This document shows positions 53,333-56,243 of a stretch of 64,000 nt of DNA, piece after piece; the first letter of the stretch is position 1, and each line of letters starts with the position of its first letter. The position numbers and the translations under genes are program-made. The notes beneath the pieces are model-generated. The model saw only the letters and a program-made list of their open reading frames with translations, had not been told where the DNA came from and ran no database searches. Source of the DNA: Escherichia coli (lineage in GTDB: Bacteria > Pseudomonadota > Gammaproteobacteria > Enterobacterales > Enterobacteriaceae); the NCBI RefSeq assembly GCF_003334355.1, contig NZ_QOWP01000002.1, one strand, 5' to 3'.

Positions 53333-55924
53333 TCAGAACGTCCAGACCACACCCGCCTGAGTATTCCACGGCGATTCTACCCCTGCGCCATTGCCATAGC
53401 TGACTGACAAATGACCGCTTAACGTCGGGGTAAACGATGACCTTATCCCAGCCTGATAAACGCCACGGGTTCCAGCCACATCATTATTAAATTTGCCATC
53501 GTCATTAACTTTCACCTGGTTAGAATCGGCGTATTCCTGACGTACGGCGGCTTTCAGCCAGGGTTCCAGCGTCGTACCATTTTGCAGGTCCATGTGATAG
53601 CTTACCGCCGTTCCCGCTTCAGCGCGTAATATCCGGGTATTTCCCACATCAGCGCGCATGCCGTTTGATAACGTGTAGTCCTGACCATCTGTGGTAAAGC
53701 CGGTAAAGGCCAGATAGGGTCTAACACTCCACAATCCGTCAACCCAACGGAACCCGCTCTCAACATGAGCACCCGCGCCGTTACTATTGTAATCGCCAAA
53801 CGCTGTTGCCCCATTACTCATCTTGCCATGGATGGTGTTGGCAAAACGGTCAACTTTCACCACCCCATCAACATAGGCACCGTTCTGATGCTCCCAACCG
53901 GCATAAGCCCCCAGGGTATAGCTATCGATATTACCTTTTCCGCCGCGATCAAAACCAATATCAGAATGAGAGTAACCAAAGAACAAGCCGCGAATTGTAC
54001 TGCTTTCTTCACGGGAGAAACGGCTATCGATACCGAGCGTCAGGCCCGTCAATGTTTGCTCAAAACCAGCTCCCGCATCAGTGGTCACGTTGTTGCGGGT
54101 GTTAATTGCCGAACTCCACATCGCCGTATCGTAACTAACGCCTTTTACGCTACCAAGACGCTCACGCACGGTGTCCAGTTCTGCATCAAATACCAGCGGT
54201 TGTGCGGCCGCCATATTCAGCACATCAGTGGTTGAAGGGGTAATTTGCGCGCGATTCTCTGCCAAACTCCAGCTATGGTTGCCATTATCCAGCAAGGTAT
54301 ATTCATACGTACCGATATCAACAACGCCTCCGGCATTGCCCAACGTGAATGCAGCATCACCGCCGCCCGTCGTTACCAGTGTAAGGCTATCTCCTGCTGC
54401 CGGGCTGGCCCCCGTGTCCGTCACGAATATTTTGAAATCACCTGTTGCCTGACCGGTCACGTTGAGCTGATCGCTCTGATGATTGGCCATATCGGTACGC
54501 ATATAAAAATTGCCGTTTCCCGACAGGGTATTAGTGGTCAACGTAATGAAATTTTCCGCACTTGCCGTCACAGATGAACGAGTCACTGGCTCATCCATCA
54601 TAATCACATTTGCGCCAGACATCGCAAGGTTGGCTAAATTGAGGCGGGTGTTTTGGTTCGTCGTAGTGATATCGGCAATGATGGTCCATGCGCTATTTTC
54701 GAGCGAAACATCCGCTTTGCTGGTATCCACGGCACCATGCGTTCTAAAAGAAGCGCCCTCAGAAACCACTACCTTACCCACCAACATAGCGGGTGCATAA
54801 TTTATTTGCGGCTTCATGACCTCAAGAATGCCATCATTCCCTCTGACTGACACGTTAACCATTGTGCCAGCCCAGACATTAGCGCGGCCATTGTTGATTA
54901 CCATATTTTCAGAGATGGCTTTTGAGGAATACGTGATACTTCCATTCTGGTCTGATCGACCGAGATCATATACCACATTTGCCTGCACTTTCGTACCAGT
55001 ATCCTTTCCCAGCGATTGCATAGTGGCATGCTCATCAAGGATAGTGTCAATGGCCTGCGTGTCCTCCATAACAATGAGCCCGGAACCATCATCCAGTTCA
55101 TAATTTTTTGACACACCATCTTTTATACTAAATTGGCCTTTACTGTTTGTACCACTCACTTCCAGCGCATTCGTTGAGACAATTAATTTTCCGCCTGCTT
55201 TTTTATCAACGCCAGTTGCAGTCCCGCCATCCATAACCTCCAGTAAGCCGCCACTATCTACAGTAGTATTATAAGCGAAGTCATTTTCTTCAACTCGCAA
55301 ACTCCCGCCGTTTTCCAACAGCATATTGTTAGCAATACCATTCTTGATTTCGAACTGACCGAGACGGTTTGTTCCGAATACCTCCATGACCCGCGTGGTT
55401 GCTTTAATAGCACCGCCTGCTTTCTGATCTACCGCAAATGCAAATCCCCCCTCTTTAACCTCCAGTAATCCTCCCTTTTCGATAGCGGCAAAGACGGTCC
55501 CCCCATCTTTTTCAACGATTAAGCGCCCGCCTTTAATCGTGGGATCATTCGCCGCGCTATAAACCTGTAGCACACCATTATTGAGCGTAGTCTGGTTTGC
55601 CGCGCCACCCATTTGAACAATTTGATAACCGTCATTTAATACTGAGTATTCTGCGGCGCCATTCATTTCAATGTACTGATACCCTCCGTTAATTTCAGTA
55701 TTATTACTTACACCAAATTCTTTTATATGCTGTTCTCCGCCAGGATTGATTTTCGTATTATTGGCGGTCCCATAAACCAGCTGGATATCTTTTTCCAGGA
55801 CAACACCATCAACTGTCTCACCATACTCAACAGTTGATGCCAATGCTATGGGTGAATATAACGCTGTAGCCACCAGAACAGATATTGCGGAACGACAAAG
55901 AGAAACAGAACCAGATTGATGCAT
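53333..55924 (-). CDS. yejO: Adhesin-like autotransporter YejO
   Basis: 863-aa ORF with signal peptide, Gly-rich repetitive passenger domain, and C-terminal beta-barrel ending in an aromatic residue (...VVWTF). Confidence 0.82.
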   Translation of the reverse strand: MHQSGSVSLCRSAISVLVATALYSPIALASTVEYGETVDGVVLEKDIQLVYGTANNTKINPGGEQHIKEFGVSNNTEINGGYQYIEMNGAAEYSVLNDGYQIVQMGGAANQTTLNNGVLQVYSAANDPTIKGGRLIVEKDGGTVFAAIEKGGLLEVKEGGFAFAVDQKAGGAIKATTRVMEVFGTNRLGQFEIKNGIANNMLLENGGSLRVEENDFAYNTTVDSGGLLEVMDGGTATGVDKKAGGKLIVSTNALEVSGTNSKGQFSIKDGVSKNYELDDGSGLIVMEDTQAIDTILDEHATMQSLGKDTGTKVQANVVYDLGRSDQNGSITYSSKAISENMVINNGRANVWAGTMVNVSVRGNDGILEVMKPQINYAPAMLVGKVVVSEGASFRTHGAVDTSKADVSLENSAWTIIADITTTNQNTRLNLANLAMSGANVIMMDEPVTRSSVTASAENFITLTTNTLSGNGNFYMRTDMANHQSDQLNVTGQATGDFKIFVTDTGASPAAGDSLTLVTTGGGDAAFTLGNAGGVVDIGTYEYTLLDNGNHSWSLAENRAQITPSTTDVLNMAAAQPLVFDAELDTVRERLGSVKGVSYDTAMWSSAINTRNNVTTDAGAGFEQTLTGLTLGIDSRFSREESSTIRGLFFGYSHSDIGFDRGGKGNIDSYTLGAYAGWEHQNGAYVDGVVKVDRFANTIHGKMSNGATAFGDYNSNGAGAHVESGFRWVDGLWSVRPYLAFTGFTTDGQDYTLSNGMRADVGNTRILRAEAGTAVSYHMDLQNGTTLEPWLKAAVRQEYADSNQVKVNDDGKFNNDVAGTRGVYQAGIRSSFTPTLSGHLSVSYGNGAGVESPWNTQAGVVWTF

Positions 55925-56243
55925 TGAGCTTTCATCCTATGAAATTAATTGCTGTTAAAAGCATTGGGTACAGAAAATACCCATAGCTCCATACCCGGAG
56001 TCAGTTTTTAAAAACTGTTTAAAGAAATGCACAAGTATTGTGATTGATTTTTTAGTTGTTTTTCTTGATGAGAAGCTGATGCAAAATTCCGTCTTTATAA
56101 TGAAAATGATGCCAAAGCGAACGACAAGGTTGTAGTTTTCACTACATGTCCATACATAAAATGGGGTAACATTCACGCGCCTGGTAGCGTTACCAACGCT
56201 ACGCTCAAACATAATGATTCTAATAAAACCTCAGGAGACTACT

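Follow-up and report, generated by a model that had tools for sequence, protein, structure and literature searches.

Does the long open reading frame between proL and narP encode an intact autotransporter of the kind that Escherichia coli K-12 has lost, and if so, is the gene a resident of the locus, a recent arrival, or a relic on its way to decay? The gene, yejO, its disruption by IS5K in K-12 (recorded in the reference annotation and in the literature) and the existence of intact copies (annotated in thousands of genomes) are already known; our concern is with the copy in one 64,000-nt stretch of E. coli DNA, hereafter the window. The locus is arranged as follows.

53155..53231, plus strand: proL, tRNA-Pro(GGG), convergent with yejO (ARAGORN; Rfam tRNA model, 54.9 bits)
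53241..53271, no strand assigned: hairpin flanked by an A run and a T run where proL and yejO converge; the terminator scan shows a stem of 14 pairs with a T run after it
53333..55924, minus strand: uninterrupted yejO coding sequence of 863 codons and a stop; identical RefSeq DNA corresponds to WP_063096576.1
55925..56243, no strand assigned: divergent yejO–narP intergenic region, 319 bp, 36.4% GC, no IS
56244..56891, plus strand: narP response regulator gene, divergent neighbour (open reading frame and RefSeq annotation of near-identical DNA)

A preliminary description, made from the letters of the sequence, had called the 863-aa reading frame uninterrupted, and so it is: it begins with ATG, the list of open reading frames gives no internal stop, and four RefSeq genomes carry stretches, annotated 'autotransporter YejO', that match the DNA of positions 53000-56400 at 100% identity. 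Only 101 bp separate the gene from proL. By pattern match, the hairpin in that space is a likely bidirectional intrinsic terminator. A search of Rfam at permissive E-values gave tRNA-Pro as the sole credible match; four further matches on the terminator hairpin (E 0.45-0.71) all fell well below gathering scores and were discarded as chance. Together with the evidence that follows, and with two published studies counted in its support (PMC11005336, PMC11677980), this leaves us highly confident that the window carries an intact chromosomal yejO allele where the gene normally lies, between proL and narP, and that it encodes a classical autotransporter (type Va) belonging with the AIDA-I/Ag43-like adhesins.

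Comparison with K-12 MG1655 locates the difference between the two copies at the extreme 5' end of the gene.

55838..55924, minus strand: Sec-type signal peptide, residues 1-29 (MHQSGSVSLCRSAISVLVATALYSPIALA, cleaved before S), predicted by reading the sequence
55858..55861, no strand assigned: empty IS5K target site, ATAA on the plus strand and TTAT in the orientation of the gene, duplicated around IS5K in MG1655

The position of IS5K was taken from the RefSeq record and from the alignment of the window with MG1655. BLAST of the window against NC_000913.3 yields two pieces that overlap by exactly these four bases, IS5K (1195 bp) lying between the pieces in MG1655. The element therefore sits inside the coding sequence of MG1655 yejO (b2190), which is annotated as a pseudogene, 'adhesin-like autotransporter YejO', at the same proL–yejO–narP locus and with 98.3% DNA identity to the window over the gene; its 4-bp target duplication falls at coding nucleotides 64-67, within signal-peptide codons L22 and Y23. 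Removal of IS5K and of one duplicate copy from MG1655 restores an 863-codon reading frame whose product is 98.0% identical to that of the window, which, with the shared locus, places the two in one YejO orthologous group. The K-12 gene thus differs from that of the window because IS5K entered codons 22/23, and the reading frame of the window is intact because it lacks the element. The earlier description had tentatively placed an IS5 in the yejO–narP interval of MG1655. That placement was mistaken, the MG1655 interval being likewise 319 bp and free of IS; the associated proposals, that the interval in the window spans about 320 bp without an IS and that the window represents the uninserted state, hold good.

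The uninserted state is also the rule. The 5' end of yejO is uninterrupted in 5005 of 5411 genomes and the site is split in approximately 380; both of the split-site records that were sampled are K-12 strains. The copy in the window represents the state that is both ancestral and common.

Downstream of the signal peptide the remaining parts of a type Va autotransporter follow in order.

54260..55837, minus strand: passenger domain (residues 30-555), composed of beta-helix-type repeats of 18-19 aa
54260..54634, minus strand: pertactin-like C-terminal passenger segment (autochaperone), residues 431-555 (PF03212, 5e-45; PDB pertactin 1dab, 6.5e-18)
53336..54121, minus strand: translocator beta-barrel, residues 602-863, ending ...VVWTF (PF03797, TIGR01414, PDB)

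The signal peptide, as read from the sequence, combines R11 as a basic residue with a hydrophobic core spanning residues 13-28 (11-residue Kyte-Doolittle mean of up to 2.1, residues 13-23) and an A-L-A/S cleavage motif at 27-30. At sequence level the passenger is of the beta-helix type with an autochaperone: Pfam AIDA (PF16168) matches residues 184-245 (4e-24) and 257-315 (2e-21), with weak matches over 51-171, and PF03212 and PDB matches cover the C-terminal segment; the solved passengers of Ag43 and TibA are matched as well. The imperfect strand-loop-strand repeats of approximately 19 aa that characterise the SAAT subgroup are evident both from the TIGR04415 repeat model (58.9 bits against a cut-off of 30, in three stretches) and from self-comparison of the passenger, which peaks at offsets of 18 and 19. 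The barrel is matched by PF03797 (2.7e-45, residues 602-841), by TIGR01414 (371.9 bits, cut-off 16) and by the solved barrels of BrkA (3qq2) and Vag8 (7akv), and the protein ends in an aromatic residue, F863.

An intact reading frame does not of itself say how the gene fares in the species. Most of yejO is present in 4282 of 5426 complete genomes, and an estimated two-thirds of complete genomes have it at full length and free of all lesions counted. Approximately 1,140 genomes carry a deleted remnant only, among them the B2 strain LF82, in which the gene has suffered two internal deletions; in 277 genomes the allele is 789 aa long and lacks exactly one unit of the 74-aa passenger repeat described below; and in strains 204 and EC931 independent insertions of IS1A, at three separate sites, break the coding sequence. 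In strain PSS-12 an IS1A lies upstream, 107-118 bp from the start codon, and the reading frame is intact.

The existence of these variants is plain, and their pattern is that of IS5 entering once, IS1 entering the coding sequence at three sites at least, nested deletions in about one-fifth of genomes, and, in about 5%, the loss of precisely one module of four rungs. It is possible, if doubtful, that lineage-specific selection for loss or change of length lies behind it, in a gene otherwise conserved by purifying selection across Escherichia, with the 74-aa repeat serving to switch the length or antigenic type of the adhesin; that the variants are selected, or differ in function, is part of that reading and not of the observations.

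The same losses can be read as the decay of a gene that is open but silent and drifting toward pseudogene status, with no working adhesin as its product. Inactivation has indeed recurred independently, by IS5K in K-12 and by IS1A in 204 and EC931, deletion has left LF82 and many other genomes with remnants, yejO is reported missing from ST131 (PMC5654935), and it was detected in just 106 of 3,376 K-12 RNA-seq sets (PMC10392735). The expression data for yejO, however, all derive from K-12 and its broken gene (PMC10392735), and the low figure stems from that interrupted copy. Moreover, dN/dS between E. coli and E. albertii is 0.18 overall, 0.28 in the passenger and 0.05 in linker and barrel (dS approximately 0.85), values that imply long-term purifying selection, both species retain the reading frame at full length, and most of the gene persists in 4282 E. 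coli genomes. We accordingly consider decay unlikely. Its loss or breakage in many lineages nevertheless means that the gene is dispensable, and it may be silent under most conditions.

The base composition of yejO requires comment, because the preliminary description took the AT-richness of the region as a possible sign of horizontal acquisition. The AT-richness is real for the 5' 1.3 kb of the gene and the region upstream: the first 900 nt have a GC3 of 37-41%, and the 1500 bp from 54801 (42.9% GC) are poorer in GC than any other stretch of their length in the 64 kb, nearly tied with the lpxT region. For the gene as a whole the effect is modest, with 48.5% GC where 26 genes of the neighbourhood have 52.2±2.8% (z -1.3) and a GC3 of 46.8% against 57.6±5.6% (z -1.9); the barrel-encoding 3' half, at 51-52% GC, is average, and synonymous codon choice, fourth lowest of 27 genes, is no outlier among the neighbours.

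That yejO is a recent horizontal insert beside a tRNA gene, and AT-rich for that reason, we regard as very improbable. The idea draws on the low GC3 and on the proximity of proL, a tRNA gene that serves in some strains as an integration site for foreign DNA: the APEC O78 sequence begins to match the window within proL, and Shigella flexneri 1c carries a prophage remnant there (PMC4924310). Yet of 5426 complete E. coli genomes 5422 have yejO or a remnant of it at the same locus, which is not a patchy distribution, and E. albertii possesses a full-length orthologue (862 aa, 77% identity) adjoining narP–ccmH, with a yejO–narP interval that can be aligned with that of the window. The stretch 53000-56400 contains neither an integrase gene nor an IS, and the gene is flanked neither by direct repeats nor by a copy of the tRNA 3' end. 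In E. albertii the gene is just as AT-rich (45.8% GC), so that low GC is a stable property of yejO and no sign of recent arrival. Conserved locus, orthologue, codon choice and missing mobile signatures led us to reject recent transfer; acquisition may have preceded the split of E. coli and E. albertii. A scan of species-representative genomes for exact 8-residue words, a method blind to distant orthologues, returned E. albertii alone and no E. coli representative.

The composition of the 5' region bears also on expression. A promoter scan of the 319-bp interval found no sigma-70 consensus on the yejO strand, and fewer sites in total than in shuffled sequences, so no promoter can be named for the gene. 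Its AT-richness suggests that the 5' region could be silenced by H-NS; a literature search on H-NS and yejO found no direct evidence. An 85-aa reading frame within the interval (55955-56212, minus strand) has no support, is unannotated in the RefSeq records fetched for the locus, and was treated as spurious.

The preliminary description had seen a repeated block of roughly 75 aa, quoting what prove to be residues 151-196 and 225-270 (27 of 46 identical), and repeat detection confirms it with a period of 74 aa.

55292..55513, minus strand: 74-aa repeat unit A, residues 138-211 (register arbitrary), from the offset-74 self-match
55070..55291, minus strand: 74-aa repeat unit B, residues 212-285, from the offset-74 protein match and the DNA repeat

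Among ungapped BLOSUM62 diagonals of the passenger the strongest lies at offset 74 with a score of 202; the maxima of 100 shuffles average 35.1 (sd 5.1) and reach 57 at most. In the DNA the repeat survives as a 73-nt direct repeat (55191-55263 and 55413-55485), 71% identical and 222 nt apart. Tandem Repeats Finder reported nothing in 53333-56243, even at a score of 30, because the copies are too diverged (62-71% DNA identity), and the repeat is for this reason demonstrated by self-comparison of the protein. That it might be mere glycine-rich beta-helix periodicity and no duplicated block, as the 18-19-aa period throughout the passenger (offset-18 score 105) and the weak AIDA matches might suggest, was tested and rejected as scarcely credible, for the offset-74 score is almost double that at offset 18 and exceeds every shuffle, the DNA copies still match at their 222-nt spacing, and crossover between the two has removed precisely 74 aa from a natural allele. 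Between E. coli and E. albertii, unit A is 72% identical to A and unit B 73% to B, while A and B share 36-46% (45% for unit A of the window against unit B of E. albertii); both copies being present in E. albertii already, the repeat is old and predates the split of the species. It is an ancient internal duplication, in no sense recent, that would span about four rungs.

By analogy with its family, YejO would be taken through Sec by its 29-residue signal peptide, after which BAM would insert the C-terminal 12-stranded barrel into the outer membrane; the passenger would then reach the surface, its folding beginning at the pertactin-like autochaperone and ending in a right-handed beta-helix with rungs of 18-19 residues. 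Such a route, and the number of rungs, are those expected of a relative of the proteins compared below, and YejO is most likely an adhesin or aggregation factor. A search of the literature for YejO function, including self-association, aggregation and biofilm formation, found no experimental report, and the adhesin role accordingly derives from homology.

The value of these results is mainly one of good annotation: the K-12 insertion belongs in the region coding for the signal peptide and not in the intergenic interval. K-12, including the Keio ΔyejO strains used as 'wild type', has no working YejO. The natural alleles (863 aa, 789 aa, IS-broken and deleted) provide ready-made comparisons for functional study.

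Among known systems, sequence search of the PDB identifies Ag43 (1.7e-36) and TibA (2.8e-26) as solved relatives of YejO, together with Vag8, BrkA and pertactin. The three Bordetella proteins have an autochaperone segment and a beta-barrel translocator homologous to those of YejO; this homology is limited to the C-terminal 400 residues, the N-terminal passenger of YejO being unrelated in sequence. AIDA-I and TibA (4q1q) share with YejO the AIDA-type passenger repeats, which in YejO have a period of approximately 18-19 aa. Both are glycosylated adhesins of diarrhoeagenic E. coli and are plasmid- or island-borne; yejO, by contrast, has a fixed chromosomal locus, its neighbours are tRNA-Pro and narP, and the annotated 43 kb contain no heptosyltransferase gene of the Aah/TibC type. 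Against the AIDA-I model (NF033176) YejO scores 70.8 bits, where the cut-off is 1200. Self-associating antigen 43 (Flu/Cah; 7koh, 4kh3) shares with YejO the type Va architecture, homologous passenger repeats, a pertactin-like autochaperone and a C-terminal barrel, yet YejO, at 863 aa, is shorter than the 948-position Ag43/Cah model (NF033177), against which it scores 126.7 bits, again with a cut-off of 1200, and is no Ag43 orthologue. Judged by sequence, YejO is akin to both Ag43 and AIDA-I, yet is neither.

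The window covers E. coli core chromosome from sanA to napC (approximately the 48-49 min region of K-12) and carries yejO as one continuous frame. Between 53000 and 56400 it matches four RefSeq genomes at 100% identity, with yejM, tRNA-Pro, 'autotransporter YejO' and narP annotated there; the preliminary description of an intact 863-aa autotransporter, and the name it gave, are therefore correct, and the intact gene is already known.

Features of the yejO locus (window positions)
53155-53231, plus strand: proL, tRNA-Pro(GGG), convergent with yejO
53241-53271: hairpin of 14 pairs flanked by A and T runs, between convergent proL and yejO (pattern match)
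53333-55924, minus strand: yejO, single uninterrupted ORF of 863 codons
55925-56243: divergent yejO-narP interval, 319 bp, 36.4% GC
56244: start of narP, divergent from yejO

The hairpin looks like a candidate bidirectional terminator. A near-perfect 16-nt inverted repeat with a 1-nt loop (TCGCTAACTGATTAAT / ATAAATCAGTTAGCGA; 53070-53102) overlaps the yejM stop codon. Strain MLI023K1 (record L004) matches the window exactly across yejO and shows 89 differences in 31 kb (33000-64000), which shows the window strain to be related to, and not identical with, MLI023K1.

The yejO gene of K-12 MG1655 (b2190, NC_000913.3) is a two-piece pseudogene with a 1195-bp IS5K between the pieces, the first of which is just 67 nt. 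When the window is aligned to MG1655 the two matching pieces overlap by four bases, 55858-55861 (ATAA; TTAT in gene orientation): these are the IS5K target duplication, found on both sides of the element in MG1655. At CDS nt 64-67, the site falls on codons L22/Y23 of the signal peptide's hydrophobic core. The preliminary statement that K-12 carries an IS5 copy here thus holds for the locus, but not for the yejO-narP interval to which the copy was assigned: the element is within the coding sequence, and the interval is 319 bp in MG1655 as in the window. With IS5K and one copy of the duplication removed, MG1655 yejO becomes an open frame of 863 codons whose product is 98.0% identical to that of the window, and hence IS5K is the only lesion of K-12 yejO. 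Its disruption of the gene agrees with earlier reports (PMC11005336, PMC11677980); the TTAT/ATAA duplication is at odds with the CTAA/CTAG-type IS5 sites of PMC11677980. With a continuous ORF and an empty target site, the window does represent the uninserted state, as had been supposed.

Three further strains carry independent IS1A insertions at the locus.

IS1A insertions (window positions)
54531-54539 and 55036-55044: two copies in strain EC931 (L008), yejO coding sequence, 9-base overlaps
54823-54831: strain 204 (L007), yejO coding sequence, 9-base overlap
about 56031-56042: strain PSS-12 (L006), yejO-narP intergenic region, 12-base overlap, yejO ORF intact

The PSS-12 insertion means that a natural IS in the yejO-narP interval exists, but it is IS1, and not in K-12.

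States of yejO among 5,426 complete E. coli genomes
Locus holding some yejO sequence: 5,422 genomes
At least 80% of yejO covered in one place: 4,282 genomes, a figure that takes in IS-interrupted and any frameshifted copies and does not count intact ORFs alone
No interruption in the 401 bp around the IS5K site: 5,005 of 5,411 genomes
IS5K site split into two places: about 380 genomes (both of the split records sampled come from K-12 strains)
In-frame 789-aa allele without exactly 74 aa (residues 168-241): 277 genomes with its exact junction, e.g. APEC O78
Deleted remnant only (<80% of the gene): about 1,140 genomes

The 789-aa allele lacks exactly one unit of a passenger repeat. The strings quoted for this repeat in the preliminary description occupy residues 151-196 and 225-270, with an offset of 74 residues and 59% identity, and repeat detection bore out the claim: within the passenger the offset-74 diagonal has a score of 202, against a mean maximum of 35±5 in 100 shuffles that never exceeded 57. 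The second peak, with a score of 105, falls at offset 18, the rung period of a beta-helix of this kind, so that by homologous structures the 74-aa block would amount to about four rungs. At the DNA level the copies stand 222 nt apart and are 71% identical over 73 nt. The deletion (55202-55423; placement ambiguous within 55191-55246 / 55413-55468; 2859-2914 in the APEC O78 record, L002) has its crossover inside a 56-nt stretch common to both copies, within the conserved VD(Q/K)KAGG stretch. Units A (residues 138-211) and B (212-285) of E. coli are 72% and 73% identical to their E. albertii counterparts, compared with 36-46% between A and B, and the duplication is accordingly old. The remnant in LF82 (B2) has two internal deletions (53363-53991 and 54449-55452; 3001-3913 in its record, L003) and is annotated as frameshifted and incomplete, in agreement with the reported absence of yejO from ST131 (PMC5654935).

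The suggestion that yejO is more AT-rich than its neighbours stands for the first 1.3 kb (GC3 37-49%) and fails for the barrel half, which is average. Over the whole gene, GC is 48.5% where 26 genes around it give 52.2±2.8% (z -1.3), and GC3 is 46.8% where they give 57.6±5.6% (z -1.9); synonymous codon choice ranks fourth lowest of 27, making yejO no outlier. The stretch at 35600-36900 (lpxT and the sequence upstream of mepS) equals the yejO 5' region in AT-richness (about 43% GC/1500 bp; lpxT 44.1% GC), and the window thus holds a second region of similar composition. Silencing by H-NS is suggested by the AT-rich start of yejO and the region upstream of it, but a literature search found no direct evidence for it.

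Recent horizontal acquisition, of which this composition had been taken as a possible sign, is not supported, given the unremarkable codon choice and an orthologue beside narP in E. albertii. That orthologue is intact (862 aa, 77% amino acid identity, 45.8% GC) and adjoins narP-ccmH-dsbE. Comparison with it gives a dN/dS of 0.18 for the whole gene, with 0.28 for the passenger, 0.10 for the autochaperone and 0.05 for linker plus barrel; the neighbours narP, ccmH and dsbE have 0.02-0.04. By the orthologue's position and these ratios, yejO is old at this locus and under purifying selection, and its passenger evolves faster. Acquisition before the Escherichia radiation is possible. The proL side varies between strains and species. 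In E. albertii, homology on the side away from narP stops at the terminator (53241; L005 6680-10586), with no tRNA within the next 4 kb. In APEC O78 (L002 1-853) it starts inside proL (53186), with hypothetical genes upstream and yejM absent there, which suggests an element integrated at proL; a prophage remnant is described at this site in Shigella flexneri 1c (PMC4924310).

A Sec signal peptide can be read at the start of YejO, with a predicted cut after A-L-A (residue 29), and the protein ends in VVWTF. By analogy with its family, YejO would be exported via Sec, its barrel placed in the outer membrane by BAM and its passenger secreted C-terminal end first, with the pertactin-like segment nucleating folding; the product would most likely be a surface beta-helix acting as adhesin or aggregation factor. 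The literature search turned up no experimental work on what YejO does. Pfam places two strong AIDA repeat domains at residues 184-245 and 257-315, weaker ones between 51 and 171, a Pertactin domain at 431-555 (5e-45) and an Autotransporter beta-domain at 602-841 (2.7e-45); NCBIfam adds TIGR01414 (371.9 bits) and the strand-loop-strand repeat TIGR04415 (58.9 bits, cut-off 30). By sequence, YejO is related to several proteins of solved structure: the passengers of Ag43 and TibA, pertactin, and the translocators of BrkA and Vag8. It scores far under the cut-off of 1200 bits for the NCBIfam equivalogs of Ag43 (126.7 bits) and AIDA-I (70.8 bits), and no heptosyltransferase gene adjoins yejO. Judged by its domains, YejO belongs with the classical type Va autotransporters of the AIDA-I/Ag43-like group, where it forms a separate orthologous group (YejO), neither Ag43 nor AIDA-I.
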